Virus record (IMG/VR): IMGVR_UViG_3300025621_000007
Span: 1 to 60,387 of that record
DNA length: 60,387 bases
Source: a virus
Lineage: Duplodnaviria; Caudoviricetes
Direction: 5' to 3' (one strand)
In this document: positions 3,859 through 39,584 of the stretch, piece by piece
How the letters are laid out: every line of letters begins with the position of its first letter
Position numbering within the stretch: the first letter of the stretch is position 1
Position numbers and translations under genes: made by a program
Notes under the pieces: model-generated
Database searches by the model: none
Seen by the model: the letters and a program-made list of their open reading frames with translations, nothing else
What the model was told of the DNA's origin: nothing

Positions 3859-4155
3859 ATGAATATCAAAGGTGGCGCTAAAATAACGCGAGCCCTGGGA
3901 TCAGCAACCGATCTTCGGCGGCTGAAAGAATTGGGGCGAAAGGGAAAAAAGAAAAAGCGATTCGACCCCTTTCGTCGTGCAAAAACACGGCTCAAGAAGG
4001 AGAAACGCAGGCTCGTTTATCGATCAGCCCTGCTTGGAGGAGTTGCTGGCGGCGTTGCTGGTGGAGCTACTGGATACGCTATGGAGAGCTTGCTTGAGGA
4101 TATCAACGAGTTTGGTATCTCAGCAGCCCGCAGATTACGTCACCTTAAGAAATGA
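3859..4155 (+). CDS. Basic glycine-zipper protein (candidate internal head protein family)
   Basis: K/R-rich, ALLGGVAGGVAGGATGYA, LLEDINEFG motif. Confidence 0.6.
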   Translation: MNIKGGAKITRALGSATDLRRLKELGRKGKKKKRFDPFRRAKTRLKKEKRRLVYRSALLGGVAGGVAGGATGYAMESLLEDINEFGISAARRLRHLKK

Positions 4156-5828: not shown

Positions 5829-6637
5829 TGGAGAAACAAATCCATTTCGTCTGCGGATTGCCAAGGAGCGGGTCAACCCTCCTTTGCAACCTATTAGCGC
5901 AGCACCCAGACGTTCACGCAACACCTACCAGTGCGTGTCACGAATCATTGTTCGTGCTACGCAATTCATGGAACCAGTGGCTGGAACACAAAGCAGCTAA
6001 AGACTTAGCAGATGATAAGAACCTACAGCGTGTGCTACACGCCATGATTCACGCATACCACGATACCGATAAGCCTGTGGTTATAGATAAGGGCAGGGGT
6101 TGGACTAGCCTACTGGAACTGGCTGAGTTTGCATTAGGCAAGAAAGCAAAGGTGCTTGTTCCTGTTCGCAACATTAGCCAGATTGTAGCGAGCATGGAGA
6201 AGCTACATCGAAAGTCTGCACACAACATGCAGGATCGTGGGGACTATATAAATGCCCAAACAGTAAAGGGGCGTGCAAATGAAGTATTGTCCAAAGATGG
6301 AGTGCTTGGTTTAGCTTACAACAGGCTTCAAGACGTAGCTCAACGAGGGTTGTCTGACCGTTTGCTACTGGTTGAGTTCGATGCACTCACCCACCGCCCA
6401 CAAGAAATCATGGCTGATGTGTGGTCTTTTCTAGAAATGGAAGCACCCGAACACAATTTCGACAACGTGGAGCAAGTGACCTATGAAGACGACTCCGTTC
6501 ATGGTCTTGACTTACACAGTATTCGGGCTGCAATAGCCCCCGTGGAAGACGACTCCACAAAAATTCTCGGCACGGAATTGTGCCAGACATTAGCGGGTGC
6601 TGAATTTTGGCGACCCACTACACCAAGTAACCAATAA
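5828..6637 (+). CDS. Sulfotransferase-family protein
   Basis: FVCGLPRSGSTLL 5'-PSB loop, VIDKGR, VRN...VAS 3'-PB motif, VEFDAL..P. Confidence 0.85.
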   Translation: MEKQIHFVCGLPRSGSTLLCNLLAQHPDVHATPTSACHESLFVLRNSWNQWLEHKAAKDLADDKNLQRVLHAMIHAYHDTDKPVVIDKGRGWTSLLELAEFALGKKAKVLVPVRNISQIVASMEKLHRKSAHNMQDRGDYINAQTVKGRANEVLSKDGVLGLAYNRLQDVAQRGLSDRLLLVEFDALTHRPQEIMADVWSFLEMEAPEHNFDNVEQVTYEDDSVHGLDLHSIRAAIAPVEDDSTKILGTELCQTLAGAEFWRPTTPSNQ

Positions 6638-7000: not shown

Positions 7001-8761
7001 ATGGGAATCGTTGAAACCGCAGCAAGGGCTGCCTTTAGGCCGGCAGATCGTCGTCCACCTTGGCAGTGGTGTGAGGACAACTATTTTGTTTCTCCTTCAT
7101 CTCCAATGCCTGGTCGGTGGCGCTCAGACAATACCCCATGGGTTCGCGAGTTCATGGAGCAGTTTGCAACTGACGATGTAAGCACAATCTCGACAATGTG
7201 CTCAGCGCAGTCGGCAAAGACAGAGACAATGCTGGCGCTGCTGGCCTGGTTAATCTCTGAAGATCCCGCTCCTTGTATGTGGGTTACGTCTAGCGAGGAA
7301 GAAGCCTCTAAGTTTTGGACTGAGCGAATGAAGCCGTCACTTGAGGCGTCTCCGGCAATCCGAGACATGATACCGACTGGCCGAACAAGGGCAAAAGAGA
7401 TATTTTTCCCTACAATGCCGCTTGAAATAATCGGCGCAAATGCTCCTTCAAAACTTCAGTCAAAGCCACGTCGCTGGCTAATGCTTGATGAGGTTCGAAA
7501 CTGGCCTCCTGGGGCTCTTCCCATGGTTCTTAAGCGGACAAGAGCTTTCTGGAATGCCAGGAGAGTCGTCATCTCTACTCCTGATAACGAACATGACCCC
7601 GTTCACCAGGCTTTTCTTGAGGGAGATCAGAGACACTATTATGTGGAGTGTCCTCACTGTAAAGAAAAGCAGCCTCTTGAATGGAAGAGCATGAAATGGG
7701 AGACAAATGATGAGACTCGGCCCGCAGGACGATATAACTTTGATAGGCTGGCAGAGACTATTCACTATGAATGTTTGAAAGGGTGTAAAATCAGCGATGC
7801 TCCTGGGCTCCGTAGGAAGATGGTCGCAAATGGTGAGTGGCGAAGGCATAATCCTGACGCGCCGAAATCTCGCGTTTCTTTTACCTGGTCGGCAATGCTT
7901 CCACCGTGGGTAACATGGCGGGATCTAGTCGAGGAATTTATTAACGCGAGCAAAGCGCAGGAATGGGGCGATCATGAGCCTTTAAAAACGTTCATTACAG
8001 AGTCTTTAGGACAGCCTTGGCGTGATGAACTACGTTATAGGAAAGAGAAAAACTTCCTGGCTGAAAGAATGGTCAACTACAACATCGGTGACTCTTGGGA
8101 TGAGACTCAACGCATCTTCCTTGGGGTAGACGTGCAAAAAGACTGTCTTTACTACGTCGTCAGGGCATTCGGAACCTTTGGTAGGTCACGCTTGCTGGAC
8201 TATGATAAAGTCATTGGGTTTGAAGACCTACTCGAAGTCATTGAACGATTCGGGATCGACGCAGATGACGTAGCCATTGATGCGGCTCACAGAACAGGAG
8301 AGGTTTATAAAGCCATTGAAGAGTCTAATTATAAATGGAAAGCTTTTTGGGGTGACGATCGTGCTTTTTGGATTCGTGATGGGATGCGTCAAGCTTGGAC
8401 AATTAGTCAAATAGATCCGGCAGTCGGAACCCGTATGCAAGGGTCTGTTCGTCCTATTCGTCTTTACCACTGGTCGAACCCGACGATTAAAGACAAGCTC
8501 GAGCTGCTAATGAGTGGGGAAGGCCCAGAGTGGCAAATTCCAGAAAAGGTTTCTCGCAACTACTTAGATCAAATAACCGCCGAACGAAGAGAAGAAATCG
8601 TAGACTCAAAGAATCGAGTGACTTTCCGGTATGTGAAAATCAGGAAAGACGATCACTTTCGCGATTGCGAATCCATGGTGATAGCAGCGGCAACAATAAC
8701 TAAAACCTTGGGTGTTGGGTTTGAGGATGTCACCGAAGTGACCGTTGCACCTATGGACTAG
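7001..8761 (+). CDS. terL: Terminase large subunit (lambda GpA family)
   Basis: PGRW....PW, SAQSAKTE Walker A variant, LMLDEV Walker B, ISTP, CPHC zinc knuckle, GVDVQ nuclease, DHFRDCE. Confidence 0.95.
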   Translation: MGIVETAARAAFRPADRRPPWQWCEDNYFVSPSSPMPGRWRSDNTPWVREFMEQFATDDVSTISTMCSAQSAKTETMLALLAWLISEDPAPCMWVTSSEEEASKFWTERMKPSLEASPAIRDMIPTGRTRAKEIFFPTMPLEIIGANAPSKLQSKPRRWLMLDEVRNWPPGALPMVLKRTRAFWNARRVVISTPDNEHDPVHQAFLEGDQRHYYVECPHCKEKQPLEWKSMKWETNDETRPAGRYNFDRLAETIHYECLKGCKISDAPGLRRKMVANGEWRRHNPDAPKSRVSFTWSAMLPPWVTWRDLVEEFINASKAQEWGDHEPLKTFITESLGQPWRDELRYRKEKNFLAERMVNYNIGDSWDETQRIFLGVDVQKDCLYYVVRAFGTFGRSRLLDYDKVIGFEDLLEVIERFGIDADDVAIDAAHRTGEVYKAIEESNYKWKAFWGDDRAFWIRDGMRQAWTISQIDPAVGTRMQGSVRPIRLYHWSNPTIKDKLELLMSGEGPEWQIPEKVSRNYLDQITAERREEIVDSKNRVTFRYVKIRKDDHFRDCESMVIAAATITKTLGVGFEDVTEVTVAPMD

Positions 8762-9093
8762 GGGTAAGGCTTAGCCAATCCTGAGTCCAGCAATAGCTGG
8801 TTCACGTTTAAATCGCCTAGGAATAGTGTCCCTAACCAGCGGCCATATTTGCCTGACTTGTCTCGGTGGCTATGCAGGGTAATGCTTTTGCCTACAATTA
8901 AGCTTCTTAACTTCTCCGCAGCAACCAGACCTTCAGCCCTTTCGTCACCACGGATTTCAGGCGCGTCAACTCCAAGCAGCCTGATTTTTTGATTCCGCAT
9001 CCAGGTGTTAAACCCTAAATCAATATCTAGGGTCACAGAGTCTCCATCATATACGCTGACGCAAATTGCTTTATATATGAATTGCCCTGTCAT
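8758..9093 (-). CDS. Thermonuclease (SNase-like)
   Basis: VYDGDSVTLDIDLGF, IRLLGVDAPE, KYGRWLG, NQLLLDSGLAKPY; start at ATG 9093. Confidence 0.9.
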   Translation of the reverse strand: MTGQFIYKAICVSVYDGDSVTLDIDLGFNTWMRNQKIRLLGVDAPEIRGDERAEGLVAAEKLRSLIVGKSITLHSHRDKSGKYGRWLGTLFLGDLNVNQLLLDSGLAKPYP

Positions 9094-9095
9094 AA

Positions 9096-9668
9096 CTATC
9101 CGTTTAAGGCTTCGTAAATCTGCACAACTCCGTCGAGTTGTGTCCTCACGGCTTTTTTCCGGTCTTGACCCCAAGTTGAAAGAGGGGACTTGGAGGTCTC
9201 CTTTTTGAACCATGATTCAATTTTCATTGCAGCGGTGACGAAGGTTTCGATTCGCTCGTCCTTGTCTTCTTTCTCTTCAGGCTTCTCTTCCTCTTCCTTT
9301 GCTTTCGTTGCTCGGGAAAGTAGCTTGAGGGCCTCATTGATTGAGCTGACTCCATCAAGAGAGATTGCTCCATCAGTTACAGCTTCTGAGATCTGCATAT
9401 ATCTATATGCGGTTCTATATGTAAACGGAAGAACGGTCGAGACCCATACACGGAACGGGTCTTTTAGCGTCTCTCGTGATTCGATTAGTAACGACCCGCA
9501 TTCGGCGGCGTGCTTTACCGAGTCGACCATCGAGCTGATCGAATCGGCGTGTGCGGATATAATCCGCTTTTTCAGGACCTCACTCGGGTCAGCTGGTTTT
9601 ACTGTGAGTCTGGCTTTGCTAACGTGTTCGGTTGTAATGGCCATCTCAGTTTTCTCTTCAGTGCTCAT
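9096..9668 (-). CDS. DUF3102-like protein
   Basis: AAECGSLLIE.R..L...F..WV....PFTYRTAYRYMQI pattern. Confidence 0.6.
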   Translation of the reverse strand: MSTEEKTEMAITTEHVSKARLTVKPADPSEVLKKRIISAHADSISSMVDSVKHAAECGSLLIESRETLKDPFRVWVSTVLPFTYRTAYRYMQISEAVTDGAISLDGVSSINEALKLLSRATKAKEEEEKPEEKEDKDERIETFVTAAMKIESWFKKETSKSPLSTWGQDRKKAVRTQLDGVVQIYEALNG

Positions 9669-10093
9669 GTTGTTTTTTGGTTTTGCGCTTTGTTCCGATA
9701 GGACTCCCGCGCTTTCTTCGATTTCTGTCCCCTTGTTGGGGGCAGGCCAAGCTCATCCTGAAATTTCAAAACGTGCTTGGAAAAGGCTTGTTTTGAGATG
9801 TTGTGCTTTTTACCCATTTGTGTAAAGCTCATTCCTTCGTAAAAAGGGAAGCCGCAAGCCATGATGGAAACATCGATTTTGAGCCGGTAGTTGGACGACT
9901 CTACGATTTGAGCCAGCAGCCTTACCATCGCTTTCTGGACTTTTTCAGCGCTTCTTCGCTCGACCTCTTGATCTATGCGCTCTTGGATAGCTCCAATCCC
10001 TTGCTCCTCTTCGTCTTCATAAATAGCGTCCCAATCGAATTCGACCGAGGCAGAGGGAAGTTCAGCGGCGTCTTTAGAGTATCCAGTTGACAT
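9665..10093 (-). CDS. HTH DNA-binding protein (sigma region-4-like C-terminus)
   Basis: GMSFTQMGKKHNISKQAFSKHV helix-turn-helix. Confidence 0.6.
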   Translation of the reverse strand: MSTGYSKDAAELPSASVEFDWDAIYEDEEEQGIGAIQERIDQEVERRSAEKVQKAMVRLLAQIVESSNYRLKIDVSIMACGFPFYEGMSFTQMGKKHNISKQAFSKHVLKFQDELGLPPTRGQKSKKARESYRNKAQNQKTT

Positions 10094-10162
10094 AGTGGGA
10101 AAAGAATAGGAAAAGTTTTATAACTAGGTCTTTACTAGAAATGACCTAACCCTTCAAGAAAA

Positions 10163-10420
10163 ATGGCATCAATTAATTGGGAAGACATTTACGTCACTTA
10201 CACTGCGGAAGAATTAGATGAAGAGATAGCCTTTTTGAAGGCTGAATCCAAGTCTATTTATATTTCTCAAAGCCAGGGGTCGAAGTCATTTTCTCGTTCC
10301 CTTTCTGATCTATCCATGAGGTTGACTGCGGCGACTCGAGTCAAATCCCAGCGCGGAGGCGGCGGGTTTGGTCCTGGAACTTTAGGCGGGGTGGACAAAG
10401 TAGTTGTTGATTTCTCATGA
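10163..10420 (+). CDS. Head completion protein (gpW-like)
   Basis: Small helix-beta-hairpin-helix (YISQSQGSKSFSRS) between TerL and portal. Confidence 0.6.
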   Translation: MASINWEDIYVTYTAEELDEEIAFLKAESKSIYISQSQGSKSFSRSLSDLSMRLTAATRVKSQRGGGGFGPGTLGGVDKVVVDFS

Positions 10421-12486
10421 GGGACTACAAAAAAGAGTATGCTCGGTATCAAGGGAAGCCGGAGCAAATTAAACGTCGGTCGGCAAGAAACCAGGCTAGG
10501 CGTAAAGCTATCCGTCTGGGGAAAGCCCGTAAGGGAGATGGAAAAGACGTGCATCATCGCGATAACAACCCAAACAATAATGGCGCTGGCAACCTATCTG
10601 TGACCTCAGTTGCGAAGAATCGAGGTTATCCGAGGGATCGGAACAACAAGCCAAAGAAGGGGCTTTCCAATCTCGCGGCTCGCATCGAGAACCTGATCGA
10701 GTTTGCCCTCCCAAAGCTGAAGTTCGGCACGGTAAAGCGTGTCTTGAAAGAAGCGAAGAGCAAGACCAAAACAGATACTTTCCGCAAGGCCGACCGGCAT
10801 GTGGAGGCTTCACACGTCCCCCCTTTCCCCGGATCAGTTGGAGCACTTAAAAGCATGGGGGTGAAGGCCAATAAAGGCCGCGGCGCTGTTATAGTCCCGC
10901 GAGGCTCAAGTCCTACCAGGCTAAGGTATTCTAAGAAATTAGAAGGCTTAATGGGCGGCCCGGCAAACACCTCAGTCCACGAGCATGGTCATGCGCTGGA
11001 TCGTCAGCTACCGCGCAGAGCGGCGGCCATGTGGAAAATGGGCAAAAAAGCTGAGGCAATAGCCAAGCGCCAGCAAAAACGATTAGGTGACAACGTAGTA
11101 ATCCCGAAAAGCAAAAGAAATGCGGTAGATGAGGCTGAAGCTGCACGCATTCAGAGTAGATTTACCAAATCAGTGCTGGGCAAAAGCTCTCTCATTATTG
11201 AAAAGCGGGCGAACAAGAACGCTTTGAATTTGGTGCAAAAGCATGGAGGCAAGAGCGAGGCTAAGAAGTGGAAAACAATCGCAAAGCGCCAAATGCACAA
11301 GGGCTATCGCGAGCCCCTTTTTAGGATTGGCATGGTGCAGAAGGGCTTCAAAGGAGACAGCCCAACCTTGTCAGAAGGGAAAAACTTCCTCCGTGGCGAG
11401 GGCAAATGGCTTAGAAGGAAGCAATGGGATCTCGCGGCTCGCATCGAGAACTTGATCGAGTTTTCGGCGAAATGGAGAAAAGTGATCGAGTTTACCTCTT
11501 TAGGGACAACGAAAAAAGTGTTAAAGGCCTTGAGAGACAAATCTCACAAGATTCACAACCAAGAAGTCTCTGTGTATCGTCCGAAGGGTGCGGGGTCGTT
11601 TTATGTGCCTAAAGCTAAAAAACTCAGCCTGGTCGGGGGGCTGAAAGAAGCGGATGATCGAGAGGCGGTATCAAATATACTAAAGATTACCCGCAAATCC
11701 AAAACCCGCGGACCTAAAGGCAAAGCGAAAGTGGCAAACGACAATTCTGTCATCGTTCCTCGCGGGGAGGCCCCAAAAAGGATTTTTCCGTGGGCCTCAC
11801 CCAAAGCCATGGGGATGCACGAAACCGGTCATGCGGCAGACCCTCACGCTTACAAGGGGGCTCAAGCCCTAAAGAATTTTGCTCGCAGACGGCCTTGGGC
11901 AACCTATGGCAAAATGAAGCAATCTCGCAGGCTTACGCTCCGCATGGAAAAAAGAGCTAACCAGAATGTCCTAAAAGAAATCAAAAAGCATGGATCAAAG
12001 AGCGAGGTGGCTGAATGGAAAAAAACAGCTAATAAACAAATGAAAATCGGGTATAGAACACCTTTTTACGACACCCTTGTTAAAGACCAAAGAGCAATGA
12101 CGAAAGCCGGACTCCGAAGTGCGGAGAGAGGGAGATATGATACGCCTCCTAGGTCTACCCCCTTAAAACCCACGCTTTCTCAAGGTAAAAAAGTTCTGCG
12201 TGAGAACCCCTGGCTAAGAAAAAAATGGAGCGAACTTTCAGCTCGTATTGAGAATTTAAACGAGCTTTCTTATGGAATGTCAAAACTTAAAAGGGCTAAT
12301 GCTGCAATCCAAAAAAGGATCAAAAAAGAAAATCGCAGAGTCAAAAATTGGAAATGGATAGATAAAGAAAACCACATGAGAGCATTTAAGAAACAATTTA
12401 ATGGTTTTTATCAGAAAGCTGATTATAAAAGAGCCTCGTCTCAAAAAAGACTAATGGCTAAAGCGTGGGCCGAAGCAAGCAAATGA
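10417..12486 (+). CDS. Basic polyprotein: N-terminal HNH domain, two HExxH metallopeptidase-like domains and a C-terminal basic segment, separated by LAARIENLIEF-type linkers
   Basis: GDGKDVHHRDNNP.NN...NL HNH; VHEHGHALD and MHETGHAAD each followed by EKRAN; linkers at about 10672, 11431, 12235. Confidence 0.75.
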   Translation: MRDYKKEYARYQGKPEQIKRRSARNQARRKAIRLGKARKGDGKDVHHRDNNPNNNGAGNLSVTSVAKNRGYPRDRNNKPKKGLSNLAARIENLIEFALPKLKFGTVKRVLKEAKSKTKTDTFRKADRHVEASHVPPFPGSVGALKSMGVKANKGRGAVIVPRGSSPTRLRYSKKLEGLMGGPANTSVHEHGHALDRQLPRRAAAMWKMGKKAEAIAKRQQKRLGDNVVIPKSKRNAVDEAEAARIQSRFTKSVLGKSSLIIEKRANKNALNLVQKHGGKSEAKKWKTIAKRQMHKGYREPLFRIGMVQKGFKGDSPTLSEGKNFLRGEGKWLRRKQWDLAARIENLIEFSAKWRKVIEFTSLGTTKKVLKALRDKSHKIHNQEVSVYRPKGAGSFYVPKAKKLSLVGGLKEADDREAVSNILKITRKSKTRGPKGKAKVANDNSVIVPRGEAPKRIFPWASPKAMGMHETGHAADPHAYKGAQALKNFARRRPWATYGKMKQSRRLTLRMEKRANQNVLKEIKKHGSKSEVAEWKKTANKQMKIGYRTPFYDTLVKDQRAMTKAGLRSAERGRYDTPPRSTPLKPTLSQGKKVLRENPWLRKKWSELSARIENLNELSYGMSKLKRANAAIQKRIKKENRRVKNWKWIDKENHMRAFKKQFNGFYQKADYKRASSQKRLMAKAWAEASK
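10670..10704 (+). repeat. 35-bp direct repeat, copy 1 (encodes LAARIENLIEF)
   Basis: atctcgcggctcgcatcgagaacctgatcgagttt; one mismatch to 11429-11463. Confidence 0.9.
11429..11463 (+). repeat. 35-bp direct repeat, copy 2
   Basis: atctcgcggctcgcatcgagaacttgatcgagttt. Confidence 0.9.
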
Positions 12487-14027
12487 AAACTACAAAACTC
12501 AACGTCATTGATAAAACAATTGCATTCTTTTCTCCTGGAGCAGGAGTTAAGCGATCTTTTGAGCGCCAGCTTTTTGAAATGAGCTACGATGCTGCGAACC
12601 CCGATCGTGGTCGGGCAATGAGTAGCAACCCTTTTACTGAAGGCAGCTCTGAATCTGCGTCGACCCAGAGAGACCGTATCAAGATGATGTGGGAGGCCAG
12701 AAACCTGGCTAAAAACTACTCTTTCGTGAAGTCGGTCTTGATGAAAGAGTCACTTTACACCTGCGGGCGAATTCAGTATCAAGCACAAACTGGTGACCCT
12801 CAAATGGATGACCTTTACGAGTCATACTTTAACGATTGGACAAAGCGATGCGACTTGACGGGGAGAAACGTATTCCGTCAAATGATCCAGCTTGGTCACA
12901 TGGGGATGCGTCGTGACGGCCAGCATGGCTGGGTAATGGTTCCGCAAGGGGCTGATATTAAGCTACAAGCGATTGAAGGCGATCGAATCGGCAACCCCAT
13001 CAAGGGCACAAGTTCTATCGACGACCGAGACTACAACGGGATCAAGGTCAACAACCTTGGACAGATAACTAACTACGAGCTTTGGGCTCGCGATAAAAAC
13101 GGACAGTATAAAAACCCCAAGGAAGTCCCAGTAGATTCGTTTATTCACTACCTTGATCCAATGCGCTCGGACCAATATCATGGCATCACAGCTTTCGATA
13201 CATGTATCCCCCACGCTCGTAACATTCACGACCTTTACCGTTATGAAACAATGGCGGTTAAGTGGGGGTCTGCACACACAGGGATCATCACCAAAGACAA
13301 AAAAGACGTGACCGACTGGAAGACGTCCGCCGAGACAACCGGGAATGGAACGATAAAAGAAAAAGTCGAGCCAGGAACAGTCCTCCGACTTGACCCAGGA
13401 GAGAATGTCTCAATGTTCCAGACTTCAATGCGTCCCTCCCCAACGTTTAACGGCTTTATTGAGGCCCTCATTCGCGAGATGGCAAACGGACTCAACCTCC
13501 CGTTCTCTTTCGTATGGGACATGGCAGCTCTTGGCGGGGTCTCTGCTCGCATTGAACTGGCGATGGCTCAACGCACATTTAAACGTTCGCAGTTACTTCT
13601 TGAGGAGAGGGTTCTCAATCCCATCAAGGACGCGGTCATCTCTCGCGCAATCACATATGGGCAGCTTCCTTCAACGGAAAAATGGAACAAGTGCAAATGG
13701 CAGTTCCCAGCTCACATTACGGCTGACCAAGGTTACACAACCCAAAGCGACATCGCGCTTATGCAGAATGGCCTGAAAACAGGGCACGACATCGTTACTG
13801 AAATGGGTGGCGATTACGAAGAAACCGTCGAGACCTTGGCTCGCGAGGCAATGATGAACGTGGCAGCATCTGAAGAACAAGTCATCCCGATTGAGGTCAT
13901 CTCCCAGCGCTACCCCAACGCTACGCAGCAGATCGCAATGATGCGTCAGCAAATGATGCAGGCTGACATGGAGAGTGAAGCTGGAATCCCTGTCGGTCAG
14001 GGTGAAGGTGAACAACCAGAAGAATAA
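12483..14027 (+). CDS. Portal protein (lambda family)
   Basis: YDAA, ARNLAKN, LQAIEGDRI, R.DQYHGI, LDPGE, RPSPTF; ATGA overlap at 12483. Confidence 0.92.
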   Translation: MKTTKLNVIDKTIAFFSPGAGVKRSFERQLFEMSYDAANPDRGRAMSSNPFTEGSSESASTQRDRIKMMWEARNLAKNYSFVKSVLMKESLYTCGRIQYQAQTGDPQMDDLYESYFNDWTKRCDLTGRNVFRQMIQLGHMGMRRDGQHGWVMVPQGADIKLQAIEGDRIGNPIKGTSSIDDRDYNGIKVNNLGQITNYELWARDKNGQYKNPKEVPVDSFIHYLDPMRSDQYHGITAFDTCIPHARNIHDLYRYETMAVKWGSAHTGIITKDKKDVTDWKTSAETTGNGTIKEKVEPGTVLRLDPGENVSMFQTSMRPSPTFNGFIEALIREMANGLNLPFSFVWDMAALGGVSARIELAMAQRTFKRSQLLLEERVLNPIKDAVISRAITYGQLPSTEKWNKCKWQFPAHITADQGYTTQSDIALMQNGLKTGHDIVTEMGGDYEETVETLAREAMMNVAASEEQVIPIEVISQRYPNATQQIAMMRQQMMQADMESEAGIPVGQGEGEQPEE

Positions 14028-14029
14028 TC

Positions 14030-15487
14030 ATGAAAAACTCAAACCGTGACACGCGTGTCACAGAATTTCAAAACAGGACTTGGGATGACAGGATCATTCA
14101 ATCGGCTACCGGTGCAGGAGCTGTCGGCATGGCTGGCGCAGGTGTCGGCGATGCTCTCGCAGAAGACGGCAAGATCACCCTGAGAAAAAGCAAAGGGCAC
14201 TTCCGAGGACTCATCAAAAAGGCTGAGAAGGCAGGCGCTAATCCGCGTGCTTTGTATAAGGGCAAAAAGATCACATCTCAGAAGTCGGCCAAAATAATTG
14301 CGAAGCTTCGCAAGAGAATGAGTCGAGCCCCAGTAAAATCGAGAAGGATCGGAGGAGGGAAATTGGGGCTTATTTTAGGAGGCCTTGCAGGAGCGTCAAT
14401 TCCCCCAGAAAAGCGCGTCATGATGGCTCGGGGACCTTCAACCCCGGACGCTTACGTCATGATCGACGGTAAGAAGTATCATGAGTTTGCACGGACTCGT
14501 CAAACTGACCCTTTTGAGGGCCTAAAGACAGACCCGAACGTAAAGCGAGCTCGGACCATCGGGGAGTATAAGAAGGCCAGCGCAATAGCAAAAAAGCTGG
14601 TCAAGAACACCAAAAAATCAAACACGGTCGTGCAGGACCTCACGGATCTTTATAATGAGAAGAGAGGAAAGCAGCCTGGGGTTCTGAAGACTTCTAATGG
14701 GCAATACCGCATTGCTAGGGCTAACCGGAACTCTGTTCGAGTTTACCACAAGGGCGGGCCAAGAACCCGTCGTCGCAAGCGTTTCTACGAGAAGAAGTCA
14801 TTCCGAGACAAGGCCGCATTCACGGGCATCGCTGGCGGAACAGTCGCAGGCATCGCAATAGGCAGAAGAGCCGAAAGCCTCAAGTATCGAGCTGCAAGAA
14901 AAGGAACTTCGATTCCGAAAGAAATGCTCAAACTTCCAGGGAGAATGATAGCTACCAGCTCTCGCGTAAATGCTAGAAATTCTGTTCGCCGCAAATACGG
15001 AGCTAGAAAGTCTCTCGGCAAAGCAGGCATGACTGGTATGAAAAACCCAAGAAGCAAAGAGGGAGGATTCACCAAAGAGGCCAGGGCCAAGACTTCGACG
15101 CAATTCCCGAAATGGAGCGAGTCTCAAGTCAACGAATCATTAAGCAAACAACAGAGCATGGCTCAAAGCGGAACTCAAGTCCCCAAGAAGGGACTGGGGC
15201 CAAACTCCCGACCGGTAAGAAGCCTTGATGGCACTATTGCAAAGCTGGAAGGCCGGCCTGGGTTTGTTCCCGCAGGTGTCGAGACGCCCAACGGCACGAC
15301 CTTCAAGAGCAAAGCGAAGCGAGTCGGCCCCTTCAGCCTTATGCCGAAATGGGCAGTAGCTGGGCGAAAAACTCCTCGTTCAAAAGCCAGCTCAGTAGAG
15401 TCAGTCAGCTCAGCAGCAAAGAGGACTCAGCTAAAAATAAACTCCTCCATACTAAAGAGAATTTTAACTCAAGTAGCAAAGAGGTAA
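14030..15487 (+). CDS. Very basic glycine-zipper protein (candidate internal head protein)
   Basis: K/R-rich; RVTEFQ and YHEFA motifs; three Gly-rich hydrophobic segments; amphipathic C-terminus. Confidence 0.7.
   Translation: MKNSNRDTRVTEFQNRTWDDRIIQSATGAGAVGMAGAGVGDALAEDGKITLRKSKGHFRGLIKKAEKAGANPRALYKGKKITSQKSAKIIAKLRKRMSRAPVKSRRIGGGKLGLILGGLAGASIPPEKRVMMARGPSTPDAYVMIDGKKYHEFARTRQTDPFEGLKTDPNVKRARTIGEYKKASAIAKKLVKNTKKSNTVVQDLTDLYNEKRGKQPGVLKTSNGQYRIARANRNSVRVYHKGGPRTRRRKRFYEKKSFRDKAAFTGIAGGTVAGIAIGRRAESLKYRAARKGTSIPKEMLKLPGRMIATSSRVNARNSVRRKYGARKSLGKAGMTGMKNPRSKEGGFTKEARAKTSTQFPKWSESQVNESLSKQQSMAQSGTQVPKKGLGPNSRPVRSLDGTIAKLEGRPGFVPAGVETPNGTTFKSKAKRVGPFSLMPKWAVAGRKTPRSKASSVESVSSAAKRTQLKINSSILKRILTQVAKR
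14046..14061. promoter_or_regulatory. Perfect palindrome GTGACACGCGTGTCAC, operator copy 2
   Basis: Identical to 38869-38884. Confidence 0.65.
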
Positions 15488-15526
15488 ATTGACATCACAA
15501 ATAATAACATAACCAACAAAACCAAC

Positions 15527-15976
15527 ATGAACGTAGACAAAAACTTACAAGAACTCAATGAAATGCTTGACGCTCAGCTCACCGAATTCCGTTACGGCTA
15601 TAAAGATGCCGGTCGCGACATCAAAGATGATATAAAAGGCTCAGCCAAGGCCCTCTTGGGCCTCGGCGCAATCGGCGCATCTGGTTACGGTGGATACCGT
15701 GCAGCGGACGCCATCATAGCAAGAGGTGGAATAAAAAAGGTGGGCGCAAGCGCTGGCCGTTATGTCGGCCAAAAAGCTGGCAAAGCAGGATCTTATGTCA
15801 GGAAGAACATCCCGACCCAGGCATCAATGAAAGAAGCCGGAACAAAAGCTGGTGCTTTTGCCGGTGACAAAGCTTCCAAAGCTGGTGACTTCCTCAAACA
15901 AAAAGGCGGTATGGCTAAAGGTAAGCTGATGGACCTCAAGATCCTCAAAGCGCTCCTTTCACGAGGCAAGGCCTAA
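15527..15976 (+). CDS. Basic glycine-zipper protein (candidate internal head protein)
   Basis: Acidic leader LQELNEMLDAQLTEF then basic body; ALLGLGAIGASGYGGY; KAG repeats. Confidence 0.7.
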   Translation: MNVDKNLQELNEMLDAQLTEFRYGYKDAGRDIKDDIKGSAKALLGLGAIGASGYGGYRAADAIIARGGIKKVGASAGRYVGQKAGKAGSYVRKNIPTQASMKEAGTKAGAFAGDKASKAGDFLKQKGGMAKGKLMDLKILKALLSRGKA

Positions 15977-16971
15977 TGAAAACCTACGGGCTAGATTCTT
16001 CCTCTCCCATCTTGCGGTCTGTGCTCACGGAGCTCAGATCACGAGATGGTCAGGGGCAATACGCTCCAGAAGATCAGGCCGACCCTTCTGCTTTTAAGAA
16101 GGCTTACTCGAATCGCTGGAAGATCGCGGCTTCCATCGCGGCGCTCGGCATCGGTGGGGCAGCTACACTAGGCCCCCGACTCCAAAGGTTCGGCGGCAAA
16201 GGGATCCTCGGACCGGTTAAAACTTCGGGGCTGAACCGAGCCAAGAAGGCGGCAGTCAATAGGAACGCTAATCTCACCGACAAAGGCAAGCGAGGAAAAA
16301 CAACCCCCTACGACCCAGGCCCGAGCCTTAGCGGAAAAGGGAAGGCGGCTACAGAAATAAATCCTAACAAGGCAAGTGGGCAACAGAAAACCAAAGCTAA
16401 GACGGCATCCATGCCAGCATCAGCAGCCAAGAAAAAGGCAGCCAAGAAAAAGGTAGCCAAGAAAAAGGTAGCCAAGAAAAAGGAGTCCAAGAAAGCCCCT
16501 CAAATGAAAGGGTCAGGAGGGGTAAGTATGAAAAAAACAGATCTTATGAATAATAATACGCAAATCACCGAGCTGCAAGGTCGCATTGCTCGGTTAATTG
16601 AGCTAAGCGACGCGTGGCAGCCTGCGGGTCTTCAAGACAAAAGTGACCGGTATCGGCGAAACTACATTCGTAGCTACGCAAAAAGCAAAAAAATCAAGAA
16701 TAGCCAGGTTGCAAAAATAGCAGGCGTGGGCGCTCTTTTAGGCGGAGGCACTGCAGCCGCAACAGCAGGAGCGGTGACAGCCGGGGTTGGGATTCCCTTT
16801 CACGGCTGGCGTGATTCTAAAAGGCCAATATTACAAGCAATGAAGAGCGGCGGCATACAGGGCGCTGTGGTAGGAGCCGGACTCTTAGGCGGGCTGGGCT
16901 TATACGGGAAAACGACGCATAACAATCGACGCAAATGGGCTCGCAAAGCTGGCTACAACATCAAAGACTAA
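15976..16971 (+). CDS. Two-module basic protein with histone-H1-like AKKK repeats and glycine zippers
   Basis: VLTELR and ITELQGRIARLIELS motifs; AAKKKAAKKKVAKKKVAKKK. Confidence 0.7.
   Translation: MKTYGLDSSSPILRSVLTELRSRDGQGQYAPEDQADPSAFKKAYSNRWKIAASIAALGIGGAATLGPRLQRFGGKGILGPVKTSGLNRAKKAAVNRNANLTDKGKRGKTTPYDPGPSLSGKGKAATEINPNKASGQQKTKAKTASMPASAAKKKAAKKKVAKKKVAKKKESKKAPQMKGSGGVSMKKTDLMNNNTQITELQGRIARLIELSDAWQPAGLQDKSDRYRRNYIRSYAKSKKIKNSQVAKIAGVGALLGGGTAAATAGAVTAGVGIPFHGWRDSKRPILQAMKSGGIQGAVVGAGLLGGLGLYGKTTHNNRRKWARKAGYNIKD
16426..16483 (+). repeat. 15-bp tandem repeat GCCAAGAAAAAGG(C/T)A x4 (AKKKV/A)
   Basis: Direct reading. Confidence 0.85.
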
Positions 16972-16975
16972 GAGC

Positions 16976-18265
16976 ATGAACAACACAGTAACATACCTCT
17001 CCCACATCAATGGCCGCTTCGACGAGAAAGCCGGAGTAATCCGAGGGGTCTCAGTCATCACTGAAGGGACAGCTCGTGGACACGACTTGAAAATTGACGG
17101 CAAAACAGTGGAGCAAATGCTCGGGGCTTGTCAGGCCTCAAATTCTGGCAGAGTCAAAACCAAGCTAAACCACCGAAGCGGAATCGAATCCGTCTTCGGC
17201 TACCTTTCTGAATTTCGCATTGAAGGTCCTAAGCTAGTTGCTGACCTCACCCTTCTCAAGAAGCATAAGGACTACGGCCAGACTATGGAACAACTTCGGG
17301 AGATGCCTGAATCCATCGGCCTCTCTGTCGCATTCACCGGAAAGCCAGAAGTTTGCGGAGATGCAAGCAAGGCAGCTCGGGTCGAAAGAATTATTTCTGC
17401 GGACTTAGTCCCAGAGCCAGCAGCCAATCCTACAGGTCTTTTTGAGGAACCCCTCGTTAGCGAAGAAGTTGACACCCCAGATAAAAATGAAATGAGTGAT
17501 ATTAATCAAGTTCTACAAGCAATCGGCGATCTAAGTAGTCGCCTCGACTCCTACGACGAACGTTTTGACTCTATTGAAGGTTCCCTCCAAGGTGAGCCTG
17601 AAGGTCAAGAAGACGGCGTAACCGAAGAAGAAATCGCCGAAGCGATCGAAGCTCTCCGTGAGCAGGGATACGACGATGGCGAAATCGAAGGCATCATCTC
17701 CTCTGAGATCGATGAGCTTTACGGTGAGGAAAGCGAAGAAGAAAATTCAGAAGCGTATGAAGATGCTCCTGAATACCGCAACGGAGGAACCGACCTCGAT
17801 CCGAACCAAGAGCGTGTCGGCAGTGTTGCTGAACAAGCTTCCGCAGCTCAACCATATGGCGAAGACGCTGGTGACAGTGACGGTGGTGGAGAATTTGCCC
17901 GTCTTGAGCAAATCGTTACAAATCTCGAAGCTAAAATCGCAGGCCAACAAGAAGCCGCAGACGAAGCAGCCCTTGAAACTCAGCTCGGAGAGATCCGCAG
18001 CAAAGTAGTCGCTCTTGCATCTCGCAATGACGAACTTGAAAATGAGCTCGATGCAGCTCGTCACGCACTAAATACCGGCACAGGTCGCGCAGTCGAAACT
18101 GGAGCCCCAGGTCAGGACATCACTCTTGGTGAAGGTGCATTCGAAGACACTGTCCGTCATCATCTTGACGAAGGTAAAACCAAAGGCGAATCCGTTGCCT
18201 TGGCAGCTAAAGAGAATCGCGAACAGCATCTCGACTGGCTCCGTCGTAGTGGTGTCATCGGCTAA
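16976..18265 (+). CDS. Prohead protease fused to acidic scaffold
   Basis: N-domain with KLNH, IGLSVAF, SADLVPEPAANP.GLF (HK97/Mu-type protease fold); acidic coiled-coil C-half; upstream of decoration and capsid genes. Confidence 0.8.
   Translation: MNNTVTYLSHINGRFDEKAGVIRGVSVITEGTARGHDLKIDGKTVEQMLGACQASNSGRVKTKLNHRSGIESVFGYLSEFRIEGPKLVADLTLLKKHKDYGQTMEQLREMPESIGLSVAFTGKPEVCGDASKAARVERIISADLVPEPAANPTGLFEEPLVSEEVDTPDKNEMSDINQVLQAIGDLSSRLDSYDERFDSIEGSLQGEPEGQEDGVTEEEIAEAIEALREQGYDDGEIEGIISSEIDELYGEESEEENSEAYEDAPEYRNGGTDLDPNQERVGSVAEQASAAQPYGEDAGDSDGGGEFARLEQIVTNLEAKIAGQQEAADEAALETQLGEIRSKVVALASRNDELENELDAARHALNTGTGRAVETGAPGQDITLGEGAFEDTVRHHLDEGKTKGESVALAAKENREQHLDWLRRSGVIG
17492..18265 (+). CDS. 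Probable nested in-frame scaffold protein (MSDINQ...)
   Basis: In-frame ATG right after the protease domain, with A-rich leader and AGTTGACA 17 nt upstream; analogous to lambda C/Nu3. Confidence 0.5.
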   Translation: MSDINQVLQAIGDLSSRLDSYDERFDSIEGSLQGEPEGQEDGVTEEEIAEAIEALREQGYDDGEIEGIISSEIDELYGEESEEENSEAYEDAPEYRNGGTDLDPNQERVGSVAEQASAAQPYGEDAGDSDGGGEFARLEQIVTNLEAKIAGQQEAADEAALETQLGEIRSKVVALASRNDELENELDAARHALNTGTGRAVETGAPGQDITLGEGAFEDTVRHHLDEGKTKGESVALAAKENREQHLDWLRRSGVIG

Positions 18266-18298
18266 TCGTTCATTAACATCTCACATCAAAAATAAATT

Positions 18299-18679
18299 AT
18301 GAATAGCAATAACGTTATCTCCCTTCAAGCAGATGCGGCCATCACTGGTCACACTCTAGTTCGCTTGACTACTTCCGGAACAGTCGAGGCCGCAGGTGCA
18401 GCATCAACAGCTGTCATCGGAACCGCCCTTCAAGATACACTTGATGGATCTCAGTGCGACATCGCAGTAGCCGGAGCTTTTCCAGTTCACTATGTTGTAG
18501 CATCTGGCGTAATCGGAGTCGGAGCAGCAGTTAAGTCTGATGCTGGCGGTAAGATCCAAAATCATGCCGGAACAGGAACCGCAATCGGTAATGCTCTCGA
18601 AGCATCAACCGCAGACGGTGAAATCATCCGCGTTCTCTTGAGTAACATCGTAACTGAAGACGCAGCAGCAGCCAGCTAA
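18299..18679 (+). CDS. Capsid decoration/cement protein (DUF2190-like)
   Basis: A/G-rich, IGTALQD...IGNALEASTADGEIIRVLL; immediately before capsid. Confidence 0.8.
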   Translation: MNSNNVISLQADAAITGHTLVRLTTSGTVEAAGAASTAVIGTALQDTLDGSQCDIAVAGAFPVHYVVASGVIGVGAAVKSDAGGKIQNHAGTGTAIGNALEASTADGEIIRVLLSNIVTEDAAAAS

Positions 18680-18714
18680 TCCACCCTAATTACAACACCT
18701 AAATTTATACCACT

Positions 18715-19674
18715 ATGTATGTTAATTCCGCAGCAGTAATTCGGCACGACCTAAACACCTTCGTAGAAGAAGCCGCACAAGCGGACCAATACTACATCGG
18801 TGCTAAAGTTCTCCCGATCCTCCCTAGCCCCGTTAAGAGCGGCATCTTCCCAAAGATCTCAATGTCTCCTGGTGAGCTGTTGAAGTCCGACTCAACCAAA
18901 CGTGGTCCTTCAGGAACATATAACGAAGTCGATCGCAAGATCTCCACTGATACATTCGATTGCATCGACCGTGGTCTCGAAGAGCGCATCGATGATGTGT
19001 TTGTTCGCGACATGAGCCGCTTTTTGGATGTTGAAGTTCTGACATCGAAGCTCATCACTCGTATGATGATGCTCGACTACGAGATTCGTTGTGCTAATCG
19101 CCTGTTTGATGCAACTACTTTTGCAACAACCAACTCTGGAGTAGAGTATAGCGAGGCTAACCTCGCTACAATCGACTTCGCTGCTGACCTTATGTCGGCT
19201 AAAGAGAGACTTACTCGTAAGGCAGTTATTCCTAACGTAGCCATCATGAACGACTCGATGTTTAACCGCATCCGTCGCTCAGCCAAGCTTCAGACTTTCC
19301 TTTATGGAAACATCGGAGCTGGAACTGGATACCGTTTGGTAAATGCTCAGGATATCGGAGCCGCTTTCAACGTCCCAATGGTCTACGTCGCAGCCGCAAC
19401 GTTTGACGCTTCTAAGAAGGGTGCTGCAAACCCAGCCCTTACCCAAGTCTGGAATTCAGACTATGTATGGCTTGGTAACGTCCAAGGTGGAGACTTCTCC
19501 GCAATGGGTGCAGGTCGCACAATCGTTTGGACCGCTGATTCTCCATCACTCTTCCAGACCGAGACTTACCGCTCAGAGCCTCGTCGAGGCGACATGGTTC
19601 GGGTTCGTCACCACACCGACGAGAAAGTCGTCGATGCAACGGCTGCTGAGTTGATTAAGATCAACAACCAGTAG
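18715..19674 (+). CDS. Major capsid protein (gpE-like HK97 fold)
   Basis: Position, size, YIGAKVLP..PV, C.DRGLEE.IDD, E.R.A..LF; followed by terminator. Confidence 0.85.
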   Translation: MYVNSAAVIRHDLNTFVEEAAQADQYYIGAKVLPILPSPVKSGIFPKISMSPGELLKSDSTKRGPSGTYNEVDRKISTDTFDCIDRGLEERIDDVFVRDMSRFLDVEVLTSKLITRMMMLDYEIRCANRLFDATTFATTNSGVEYSEANLATIDFAADLMSAKERLTRKAVIPNVAIMNDSMFNRIRRSAKLQTFLYGNIGAGTGYRLVNAQDIGAAFNVPMVYVAAATFDASKKGAANPALTQVWNSDYVWLGNVQGGDFSAMGAGRTIVWTADSPSLFQTETYRSEPRRGDMVRVRHHTDEKVVDATAAELIKINNQ

Positions 19675-19704
19675 AATATTCCTACGTCAAGTGCTCAGTT
19701 GACA

Positions 19705-19736
19705 AATGGGAGGGGTTTAGGCCTCTCCCATTTTTT
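19705..19736 (+). terminator. Intrinsic terminator after capsid gene
   Basis: AATGGGAGGGG-loop-CCTCTCCCATT followed by T tract. Confidence 0.8.
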
Positions 19737-19747
19737 ATTTACTAATA

Positions 19748-20071
19748 ATGAGCATCTTTAGCGATCAGTTCACCCGAGCCTCAGAAGAATTTCTTGAGCG
19801 CGTAAAAGAAGTCATCCTAGTCAATAACCAGGAGATAGAAGCTAGTGTCGACCCGATAACGTTTGACGACGCGATCAGAAGCGGAGGCAGGACCTCAGGG
19901 ATGTTATTTGGTATCCATGTTCGGAAAACTGACTGGGACGCCGCTGGAGGCAAGAGCGGCTCTAAAGTGACCGTCTCGGGTAAGAGAGTCCGGGCAAAGT
20001 CTTTTGTTGATATAGGGGATAACCAATACGAGATCATGTGTGAAACATTTAAAGGCTCTTCTGGGTTATGA
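19748..20071 (+). CDS. Head-tail joining protein (gpFII-like)
   Basis: Position and size; beta-rich. Confidence 0.55.
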   Translation: MSIFSDQFTRASEEFLERVKEVILVNNQEIEASVDPITFDDAIRSGGRTSGMLFGIHVRKTDWDAAGGKSGSKVTVSGKRVRAKSFVDIGDNQYEIMCETFKGSSGL

Positions 20072-20247
20072 TCCGGGTATCAGGAACGGAATCGATAGGC
20101 AGAGCAGCTAACAGAGCATTCCAAGACATAAGAGCCCTTAAGGTCAAAGTCGCGGCTAACAGTCTAAAGAAAGCCCTGGGTCGTCCATCTGTGAACGAAA
20201 GAGATTTGCGAGAAAAACTAAAAAACAAGCTAAGAAGTGGACGTTAA
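20068..20247 (+). CDS. Small basic neck/tail-completion candidate (59 aa, MIRVSGTESIGRAANRAF...)
   Basis: Read from sequence; ATGA-coupled; fills gap. Confidence 0.5.
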   Translation: MIRVSGTESIGRAANRAFQDIRALKVKVAANSLKKALGRPSVNERDLREKLKNKLRSGR

Positions 20248-20698
20248 ATCAAAATGCGAAAGATACTGGGCAGACCTTTTAAAGAGCAAAGGGGCAACCC
20301 GAGTCTATCCTGGACGTTGCGACGATGAAGACGTGGACACCCCATTTATTGTTTGTCGTTGTGAAGAAGCTCCAGTGACAATGCCAGGGGGCGGCGCACA
20401 CCGAATAGATCCCCTCGAGATCCTTGTCATTTCACACATCAGTGAAGCCACTTCCAAAGACCATTCAGAGGCCGTCGAGTGGGTCCGATCTATTATCGAA
20501 CACTCTAGCTTTCCGGATACCGGCGCTGAAATAAAGGCTCTTGGAGTAGGCCCTCTTACGGTTCGAGATGTGGCTAGTGAAGACGACGAGCGGTATGCTG
20601 ACATTCTAGAATTCGTTTTCGGGTTCACCTCCCATAAACACGACGAAACACTTCCTGTTCCCCCGGGGTTAGCGGGCTTTGGGTTGACAAATTCCTAG
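20237..20698 (+). CDS. Tail terminator-like protein
   Basis: RVYPG....PFIV motif and position before tail tube genes. Confidence 0.55.
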   Translation: MDVKSKCERYWADLLKSKGATRVYPGRCDDEDVDTPFIVCRCEEAPVTMPGGGAHRIDPLEILVISHISEATSKDHSEAVEWVRSIIEHSSFPDTGAEIKALGVGPLTVRDVASEDDERYADILEFVFGFTSHKHDETLPVPPGLAGFGLTNS

Positions 20699-20721
20699 TT
20701 AGTATAACACTCTAAAGAAAT

Positions 20722-38909: not shown

Positions 38910-39584
38910 ATGAGTGATAATCCGACCCCGTTTTTTGGCTGCGTGTTTGAAGCCGAAGACCCAAAAGGCAACTATTTTTCTGAAGACCCAATTCAATTAA
39001 CTCACTTGGGTGAAGGCAAAAAAAGAAACGCAGGAGGTGGTGTAGCAGCAGCTACATTGGCTGGCGCTGGCGCTTATGGGATTACTGAGAATGTAATCGA
39101 CCGTAAAGGCCTCCCTAGATCCTGGGCAGCCAAAGAAATGAACAAAGGCTGGAAAAAAGACAAATATAGCAGCACCGGTCAGAGGGCCTCAAAGGTAACT
39201 CGTAAAGGGGCTACAAGAATCGCTAAGATCGAGGCTATCGAAGCCAGGAATCAAGCCAAATACGACAGCCTAGTCGACTCAAAAGGAAAGGCTCTTAAAG
39301 GGCAAGCGAAAGCCAGGGACCTTGTTTTCAAGAAGGCAGACAGATTAGACAACTCAAGACTGAAAAAGCGGAGTAAGCAACTCAGCAACGCATCCACAAG
39401 AGTCCACAACAAATATGCGGGTAAACTCAAAGGCGGCGCAGCTATCCTTGGCGCTGGAATCACCATCGCTTCTTACCGTCAATCTTATAAGCAGGGGCAA
39501 AAGAAGGGTCGCAGCGAATTTGCAGCTAATGAGATCATCACCGATCTTTCCTCTCTTTCCTCCCTAATTAAAAATCAATACTAA
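38910..39584 (+). CDS. Basic glycine-zipper protein (candidate internal head protein family)
   Basis: Acidic leader, GGGVAAATLAGAGAYG, GGAAILGAGITIA, C-terminal RSEFAANEIITDLS. Confidence 0.65.
   Translation: MSDNPTPFFGCVFEAEDPKGNYFSEDPIQLTHLGEGKKRNAGGGVAAATLAGAGAYGITENVIDRKGLPRSWAAKEMNKGWKKDKYSSTGQRASKVTRKGATRIAKIEAIEARNQAKYDSLVDSKGKALKGQAKARDLVFKKADRLDNSRLKKRSKQLSNASTRVHNKYAGKLKGGAAILGAGITIASYRQSYKQGQKKGRSEFAANEIITDLSSLSSLIKNQY

Follow-up and report, generated by a model that had tools for sequence, protein, structure and literature searches.

Several unrelated domains in one phage polypeptide are a feature of the polyvalent proteins of phages and conjugative elements, in which zincin-like metallopeptidase (MPTase) domains have been predicted to autoprocess (Iyer, Burroughs, Anand, de Souza, and Aravind, 2017, PMC5512222). 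In the parts of that paper considered here, a limit which holds for all the sources cited below, between one and five of the domains of such a polypeptide are HExxH + Glu peptidases, whose predicted role is to free the other domains before packaging, in the head or after injection. In the crAss-like phages, virion proteins (gp65-gp67 of phi14:2), one of them with a zincin-like domain, are fused in some phages into a huge "likely cleaved" polyprotein (10.1101/2020.03.07.982082), and the virion RNA polymerase of N4 carries an HExxH domain (PMC13434306). The internal proteins of T4 (IPI-III, Alt) have a capsid-targeting sequence that is removed by the prohead protease gp21 (PMC3012670), and gp245 of SPN3US, an ejection protein of a giant phage, is cut at AXE, a motif reminiscent of that of T4 gp21 (PMC7411985). 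In these T4 and giant phage systems, diverse basic internal proteins share only a short N-terminal signal, which directs them into the prohead core and is then cut off; once processed, they remain in the head and leave it by ejection (PMC3012670; PMC7411985). In this study, we report a family of zincin-like modules and a junction motif of about 12 residues that flanks them in very basic proteins encoded next to lambda-type portals. Both were found through the analysis of a 60,387 base pair (bp) stretch of uncultivated phage DNA (IMG/VR virus record IMGVR_UViG_3300025621_000007), which is a complete record, linear, with an estimated completeness of 92%, and is hereafter called the window.

A first-pass annotation of the window, with whose description the open reading frames (ORFs) and their translations agree, had proposed that a shared [LIV]xE[FL] signal marks a family of very basic cargo proteins. 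It overlooked two HExxH...E modules in the protein of 689 amino acids (aa) that starts at position 10417. Proteins are named here by the first position of their ORFs, and in motif copies the slash follows the terminal residue of the motif. The features of the 10417 protein are the following:

10417..12486, plus strand: 689-aa basic multidomain protein, net charge +113, with an HNH-like domain and tandem units.
10423..10659, plus strand: HNH-endonuclease-like small domain, residues 3-81 (phrog_4590, E 3.4e-14, a family listed as of unknown function).
10669..10704, plus strand: junction motif copy 1, NLAARIENLIEF/A, residue 85, 15.5 bits; belongs to the 35-nucleotide (nt) DNA repeat family D2.
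10978..10992, plus strand: HEHGH of zincin-like unit 1, residue 188, with the downstream EKRAN at 11200-11214.
11428..11463, plus strand: junction motif copy 2, DLAARIENLIEF/S, residue 338, 16.5 bits.
11473-11493, plus strand: weaker motif WRKVIEF/T, residue 348, after copy 2, 10.3 bits.
11818..11832, plus strand: HETGH of zincin-like unit 2, residue 468, with the downstream EKRAN at 11947-11961.
12232..12267, plus strand: junction motif copy 3, ELSARIENLNEL/S, residue 606, 8.4 bits (p 0.009 in the C-side test described below).

The tandem units of 10417 are about 255 aa long and 43% and 31% identical. Two are full, each being a zincin-like HExxH...E module, and one is partial, a degenerate third unit without HExxH that is opened by motif copy 3. 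A profile of the repeat unit, searched against 1.84 billion proteins, yielded 37 cluster representatives at E ≤ 1e-3, of which 23 also passed E ≤ 1e-10; in 10417, the module profile matches residues 85-352 and 341-621. One of the 37 (P0027) was a low-complexity false positive and was discarded, which leaves about 36 relatives. All come from uncultivated sequence and are "hypothetical protein" or nameless in their source records (JGI/IMG, ENA, NCBI, Logan). Some of them stand alone as proteins of about 245 aa, and the others are part of basic proteins of 500-1500 aa, in which the zincin module is joined to other modules. The module itself is about 240 aa in size and has the gluzincin-like signature HExxH...ExxAN. 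All 40 family domains covering those columns have its H, E, H and downstream E, while ExxAN is found in 41-42 of 42 domains and its Glu in all 42. Additionally, an Asp stands three residues past HExxH in 27/40 domains, a trait also described for one phage clade of the polyvalent proteins (PMC5512222). With its HNH-like domain and two zincin-like units in one polypeptide, 10417 would fit the polyvalent pattern as judged from its domain composition.

An AlphaFold2 model of the module, built from 27 aligned rows, reached a predicted local distance difference test score (pLDDT) of 83.8 and a predicted template modelling score (pTM) of 0.82; the model of the whole 10417 protein without an alignment (pLDDT 50) was unusable. 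The order of elements in the module model is helix, three strands, HExxH helix, insert helix, and Glu helix, with HExxH on helix 99-110 and the Glu of ExxAN on helix 153-194. This is the same order as in the zincin core described for the polyvalent proteins (PMC5512222), and the downstream Glu would presumably act as third ligand of a bound zinc ion.

No Pfam family covers the module, no Pfam or NCBIfam family matched 10417, and a word-indexed protein search with residues 85-689 returned 10417 itself only. To find cultured phages or prophages with the module, 10417 and P0009, a polyprotein relative, were compared by tblastn with 50,697 phage records, and only the HNH-like domain was matched; for 10417, 28 records matched residues 1-75 only, several of which bear the annotation HNH or putative endonuclease. 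In species-representative genomes, a degenerate DNA pattern for HEHGHAADP, which covers one motif variant, gave 11 loci, with no true module among them. Literature searches found no account of the module family or of the junction motif. We consider as new the module family, the explicit motif that flanks this and other modules, and the linkage of both.

The other proteins in question are listed below:

14030..15487, plus strand: 485-aa basic protein, net charge +81, with two uncharged Gly/Ala-rich segments; no supported junction motif.
15527..15976, plus strand: 149-aa basic protein, net charge +14; N-terminal leader followed by an uncharged Gly-rich segment.
15527-15589, plus strand: 21-residue N-terminal leader of 15527, MNVDKNLQELNEMLDAQLTEF, unsupported by the junction matrix.
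15976..16971, plus strand: 331-aa basic protein, net charge +48, with three uncharged Gly-rich segments and an (AKKKV)n tract.
16570-16605, within 15976: internal junction motif ELQGRIARLIEL/S, residue 199, 16.3 bits, second best of the proteome.
3859..4155, plus strand: 98-aa basic protein, net charge +20, with a Gly-rich uncharged segment and two junction motifs, DLRRLKEL/G at 3898-3933 (12.8 bits) and LLEDINEF/G at 4078-4113 (11.3 bits).
38910..39584, plus strand: 224-aa basic protein, net charge +22, with a Gly-rich uncharged segment; no supported motif.

The six proteins are as strongly basic as had been claimed, with net charges between +14 and +113. Uncharged Gly/Ala-rich segments of at least 16 residues occur in 3859, 14030, 15527, 15976, and 38910, and elsewhere only in 20722 and the collagen-like fibre proteins; 38910 belongs to the same compositional class as the basic proteins of the head module. 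Because of their basic charge, their glycine-zipper segments and the position between portal and protease, we suggest that the basic proteins are internal head or ejection proteins, able to bind DNA or to insert into membranes. Residues 225-302 of 14030 (14702-14935) are homologous to the second basic protein of zincin-negative relatives (phmmer E 6e-16 to 6e-5, 7 loci) and correspond to their repeated element SVRVH..G..R.RR.K.WHERK plus a Gly-rich segment, which also appears, as judged by eye, within the zincin polyproteins P0003, P0008, P0009, P0016, and P0036. A profile of two small proteins of locus L012, which open with leaders resembling that of 15527, matches residues 1-61 of 15527 (domain E 0.0035, 67 ORFs), and 3859 gives a weak match to the profile of the first basic protein of relatives (E 0.0047). 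Two correspondences seen by eye, of 15527 with the fourth small protein of relatives and of the C-terminal half of 15976 with the third, were dropped as their profiles gave E > 0.2. In 15976, a 15-nt tandem repeat at 16425-16499 encodes the (A/V)AKKK tract, which is histone-H1-like and has a sub-threshold match to the Rv3852 family.

Regarding the signal itself, [LIV]xE[FL] occurs 10 times in the four basic proteins of the head module (1654 aa) against 0.86 expected from shuffling, and none of 5000 shuffles reached 10. In the other 61 ORFs it is near expectation (33 vs. 27.0, p 0.13). In the basic proteins, 10 of 64 Glu residues lie within it, and elsewhere 33 of 1201. It must be noted that this test is post hoc, the motif having been defined on the same proteins, and that a single tandem repeat in 10417 accounts for three of the ten sites. 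The recurrence noted at first pass was confirmed in part, but the four residues are only the tail of a longer element of about 12 residues, predicted to be helical and amphipathic: L-[SA]-[AS]-[RK]-x3-h-h-x-[FL], after which comes a small residue (G, A, S or D). In about 24 of 29 relatives the element stands just before the S-I-G-T-A-K-K start of the module, in forms such as ..LDDLIEF/G, ..SAKLRLREL/A, and ..SARDQLNEIVEF/G. A short amphipathic element does, as had been suggested, mark the N-termini and borders of otherwise unrelated basic modules, and it recurs across distant phages. A 14-column scoring matrix was trained on the N-side module borders of 22 proteins, all from other phages, and has the consensus QLLSALDRLIEF/GI. 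Of these training sites, 22 in number, 16 have Glu before the terminal F/L and 6 have Q, L, D or G in its place, and the constant part of the motif is the terminal F/L followed by the small residue. A T4-like cleavage after Glu is consequently not a property of the family.

On the window proteome the matrix gave 10 sites of at least 10 bits against 1.3 expected. Seven window sites are supported, of which 10417 has four, 3859 has two, and 15976 has one. Probable chance sites of at least 10 bits in non-basic proteins are those in the 5828 sulfotransferase (15.3 bits), the 33839 helicase (14.6 and 11.1 bits), 59220, and 22052. About half of the sites listed at first pass did not withstand this external test. 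Those of 10417, residue 199 of 15976, and residue 74 of 3859 (11.3 bits) stood, and residue 14 of 3859 (12.8 bits) had been missing from the list. Negative scores were obtained by RVTEF and YHEF of 14030, LTEF of 15527, LTEL and ITEL of 15976, and RSEF of 38910, as well as by the proposed sites LFEM of the portal and GEFA and TNLE of the scaffold. LQEL of 15527 is too near the N-terminus to be scored.

The C side of the module, on which the matrix was not trained, offered a further comparison, with the domains located by mapping of hidden Markov model (HMM) columns. A match with p ≤ 0.05 was found in 17 of 39 modules, 20-100 residues after a conserved Tyr, when about 2 were expected. The N- and C-side copies resemble each other within a protein (mean BLOSUM score 16.9, 5.0 identities out of 12) more than between proteins (3.2 and 2.5, respectively), a difference in score that none of 20,000 permutations reached. 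The motif is also present between modules other than the zincin, and in genes nearby. Protein P0032 has four repeats of its own seed, LSAKLRLREL. In locus L015, three adjacent basic proteins hold at least 10 copies of SAR[DE]xLxxIx[FL], and the zincin is in the middle protein only. The third of these (L015:3800-6124) is split into small modules by 7 motif copies; among its modules are a second, different HExxH stretch (HEGTH) near the N-terminus, DUF6321 (E 2e-21), and a Cys-rich mini-module. Within 10417, the DNA of copies 1 and 2 (10670-10704 and 11429-11463) is 97% identical over 35 nt, although at the protein level the units around them share only 43% identity. The contrast points to gene conversion, or to motif DNA serving as a recombination joint for module shuffling. 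The peptide of copy 3 is kept despite synonymous differences from copies 1 and 2.

These data also bear on the view that the motif has no shared function and reflects duplication, gene conversion, and generic amphipathic helices in acidic-poor proteins, which might be late membrane or DNA-binding proteins rather than virion cargo. The repeat copies among the listed sites, two of them with nearly identical DNA, the failure of many listed sites, and the chance-level matches in the sulfotransferase and helicase would all agree with it. In addition, a de novo search for repeated 10-mers in each locus, which yielded no families other than low-complexity ones rich in Gly or in Lys/Arg, failed to tell the loci apart, and the packaging of these proteins is argued indirectly. 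Nevertheless, we consider this view very improbable, given the element at the homologous module border of distant relatives, its excess on the C side, its presence in non-homologous neighbouring proteins of L015 and L012, the synonymous changes in copy 3, and the location of the genes inside a portal-to-capsid operon whose stops and starts overlap or abut.

The distribution of motif and module among related loci bears on the question of which partner reads the motif. A locus search with a narrower module alignment gave one viral locus and four metagenome loci. Relatives identified through their portals (47-50% identity) have the order portal, two to four very basic proteins, acidic protease-scaffold, decoration protein, and capsid; very basic proteins between portal and protease, as observed at first pass, are indeed a conserved feature of this phage group. 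The zincin module was found in none of eight such portal-related loci. A motif site of at least 10 bits in basic proteins was present in 5/5 zincin-positive loci, where at most 0.15 per locus was expected, vs. 1/8 zincin-negative loci. The zincin polyprotein is encoded directly after the PF05136 portal gene in L012, L013, L014, and L016, and directly before it in the window.

The first-pass annotation had assigned the motif to another partner, the protein encoded downstream of the basic proteins:

16976..18265, plus strand: acidic 429-aa protein; residues 1-160 (16976-17455) resembling a prohead serine protease with assemblin/HK97 fold; C-terminal acidic coiled-coil, scaffold-like.

According to that proposal, the motif is a capsid-targeting tag that this protease cuts in the prohead, after Glu or after F/L, in the way T4 gp21 acts on the leaders of internal proteins. 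The rule for cleavage by T4 gp21 is [IL]-x-E, to which the motif tail h-x-E/[FL] corresponds, and the frequent Glu before the terminal residue agrees with it. Residues 1-160 of 16976 do resemble prohead proteases: the nearest Atlas clusters carry Peptidase_S77, the family of T4 gp21 (22/30 feature matches), S80, and S78, with template modelling (TM) scores of 0.70-0.73 to the S78 clusters, and H36, H66, and S117 are invariant in 7/7 aligned homologues. The choice of the catalytic His is ours, by analogy with HK97 gp4. In Pfam, PHROG, and NCBIfam, no peptidase family matched 16976, nor did any PDB sequence. The name of protease, then, is backed indirectly by the neighbouring families and the invariant His and Ser but not by a curated peptidase family, and 16976 is likely a prohead protease fused to an acidic scaffold. 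The short N-terminal leaders of 15527 and the small L012 proteins would also suit a tag.

Nonetheless, the eight related loci have a homologous protease-scaffold gene, and seven of them lack the cargo motif and none has leaders. The protease domain of the window shares 48-51% identity with its counterparts in the four aligned zincin-negative relatives, which have neither motif nor module, and only 37-42% with those of the zincin-positive L015 and L012. Therefore, the motif follows the zincin and not the prohead protease; homologues without the motif, which the first-pass annotation had itself named as a counter-argument, speak against the protease version of the idea. Furthermore, Glu is replaced in more than a quarter of the training sites, the cargo motifs match the scaffold of their own phage no better than those of other phages, and neither the major capsid protein nor the portal of the window has a supported site. 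We regard cleavage by the 16976 protease as unlikely.

Our preferred reading is that junction sites in cargo polyproteins are read by the zincin, a tentative view to which we give somewhat less than an even chance. The head module supplies very basic proteins, many with glycine-zipper, membrane-like segments, that are most likely packaged as internal head or ejection cargo. In this phage and in others of scattered occurrence, their modules are fused into polyproteins or bear short leaders, each border being marked by the amphipathic element, and the same phages, and only they, encode a zincin module that is itself flanked on both sides by the element. This module would be the processing enzyme, which would recognise the junction helix and cut at or adjoining the terminal F/L, both in cis and in trans. 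What might thereby be released, in the head or after ejection, are the HNH-like domain, the membrane-active basic modules, and the zincin units. The sequences show the motif, the module family, the linkage of the two, and their place beside lambda-type portals; location in the virion, catalysis, cleavage, and the scissile bond are inferences from them. A wider proposal, which we think more probably wrong than right, is that a clade of tailed phages has a self-contained head polyprotein system. Membrane-active and DNA-binding cargo modules would be joined in series, or tagged one by one, with a lineage-specific 12-residue junction code, and an embedded new zincin family would read this code, excise itself, and free the other modules. 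Code and enzyme would co-evolve, and phages would acquire or lose them together, whatever the history of their capsid genes.

Several considerations weigh against processing by the zincin. The linkage was drawn from 13 loci, several of them related, and the matrix was trained on zincin flanks, so that divergent motifs in zincin-negative phages could escape it. The proteins 14030, 15527, and 38910 and the N-terminus of 15976 have no matrix-supported site. The near-identity of the DNA of copies 1 and 2 may mean that part of the similarity of motifs within a protein comes from recent duplication or gene conversion. With respect to the enzyme, Foldseek with the module model gave nothing at E ≤ 1e-3, and the best hit of a wide structural search (Z 6.4) extended over long helices only. 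The module profile found, among PDB sequences, Zmp1/Pro-Pro endopeptidase (PPEP) at E ~1, over about 30 columns with the HExxH stretch alone, and hhalign of the module with P1 DdrB aligned only 20 columns (probability 0.87). Since fold and profile searches gave no independent confirmation, membership of the zincins rests on motif and topology. Moreover, the protease-scaffold protein of L012 carries a strong copy of the motif, QLSATLNQLIEF/A (16.8 bits), just before its acidic tract, and the scaffolds of zincin-negative relatives have a similar ..SLIEF/A helix; the prohead protease, or an interaction with the scaffold, therefore stays in play.

Finally, many of the proteins start or end a few residues from a motif copy, where a cut would remove only 3-14 residues, and such terminal copies are at least as compatible with a helix used in docking or pairing as with a site of cleavage. 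The motif could in that case stay uncleaved and bind the scaffold or the shell interior, or bundle copies with each other, the zincin being an ejected effector or an unrelated passenger. The predicted helix, the copies at the extreme N- and C-termini of separately encoded proteins, and the scaffold helices of the group are compatible with this role, and homotypic pairing would give the co-variation seen within proteins. Targeting into the scaffolding core is a described function of the capsid-targeting sequences of T4 (PMC3012670). However, the homologous basic proteins that zincin-negative relatives load or encode lack the motif, a polyprotein would need no more than one targeting helix but has a copy at each module border, and a peptidase signature so strictly conserved argues for a role of proteolysis at some point. 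A purely docking role seems to us improbable on balance. A complex prediction of the zincin core with the junction segment of 15976 scored 0.02 (mark 0.32) and speaks for neither side.

The head module has the following further components:

7001-8761: large terminase, gpA-type (PF05876 and PF20454, TerL).
12465..14027, plus strand: portal protein, lambda family (PF05136, E 1.3e-38; phrog_21).
18299..18679, plus strand: head decoration (cement) protein (PF09956, E 5.3e-9).
18715..19674, plus strand: major capsid protein (phrog_1005, E 5.7e-28).

The terminase is followed by three ORFs on the minus strand, one of 85 aa at 10163, the gene of the 689-aa 10417 protein, and the portal, after which come the basic proteins 14030, 15527, and 15976, the acidic 16976, the cement protein, and the major capsid protein. 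From portal to capsid, neighbouring stops and starts abut or overlap as in one operon. The terminase and portal families (PF05876, PF20454, and PF05136) are of lambda type, which sustains the first half of the first-pass label "lambda-like siphophage". The siphophage half is unverified because no tail family matched any ORF from 19748 to 30764, including the 1771-aa ORF at 22052. The latter (22052-27367) lies in the position expected of a tape measure or a large internal virion protein. It has no match to a tail or tape-measure family and its sole match is sub-threshold, to DUF6883. Megablast of 10100-20000 against GenBank phages gave 0 matches, and there is no close relative among the 50,697 GenBank phage records. 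No tRNA genes were found in the window.

In addition, some other traits of the window were observed. The three minus-strand ORFs (8758-10093) break the plus-strand head operon between terminase and portal, and one of them (8758-9213) encodes an endonuclease resembling staphylococcal nuclease (PF00565, phrog_452). Just upstream of the large terminase, an acidic 474-aa protein (4404-5828) rich in Gly, Thr, Ser, and Asn resembles a fibre or repeat protein and matched no Pfam or PHROGs family. The packaging region also contains a PAPS-reductase-like ORF (524-1255; phrog_2302, phrog_424) and a sulfotransferase (5828-6637; PF13469, E 1.1e-14; PF00685), which may be auxiliary sulfur or sulfation genes. 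Tail fibre proteins with collagen-like Gly-X-Y repeats are encoded at 42079-47652 and 52405-53166, the former having 1857 aa and matching many PHROG tail-fibre families.

In relation to the described systems, the first-pass statement that nothing of this kind was known proved to be too strong, as virion polyproteins with zincins had been predicted (PMC5512222; 10.1101/2020.03.07.982082). Unlike the polyvalent proteins, the partners of the module in this locus are small basic glycine-zipper modules and not enzymes aimed at host defence, and the portions of the polyvalent protein study considered here describe no repeated junction peptide at module borders (PMC5512222). No sequence link from the module to a described MPTase was found, in a comparison that covered P1 DdrB among the 12 clades. 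The crAss-like phages and N4 are other phage groups, podovirus-like and with RNA polymerase cargo, likened here by description, and no defined junction signal is reported for them in the parts of those sources considered (10.1101/2020.03.07.982082; PMC13434306). In contrast to the signals of T4 and giant phages, the element has about 12 residues, is also internal between fused modules, ends in F/L and not in Glu, and goes together with a metallopeptidase module, not with the serine prohead protease, which is kept by relatives without the motif.

Outside the phages, the polyproteins of eukaryotic RNA viruses are cut by an embedded protease whose short consensus site is repeated at all junctions, including those on either side of the protease, and adenovirus packages a protease by which basic DNA-condensing core proteins mature inside the particle. 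The proteins and viruses are unrelated and the analogy is one of logic only. If the wider proposal were true, it would give double-stranded DNA phages a counterpart to the polyprotein processing of RNA viruses. Of the virion parts of tailed phages, internal head and ejection proteins are the least understood, and they are hard to recognise by sequence. In this regard, the signature of junction motif, zincin module, and portal adjacency could locate such cargo in uncultivated phages, and our analysis supplies exact candidate processing sites. If the zincin reads the motif, both would constitute a defined pair of protease and site for the autoprocessing so far only predicted in polyvalent proteins, and the motif would be a portable tag for loading or releasing proteins in phage heads.

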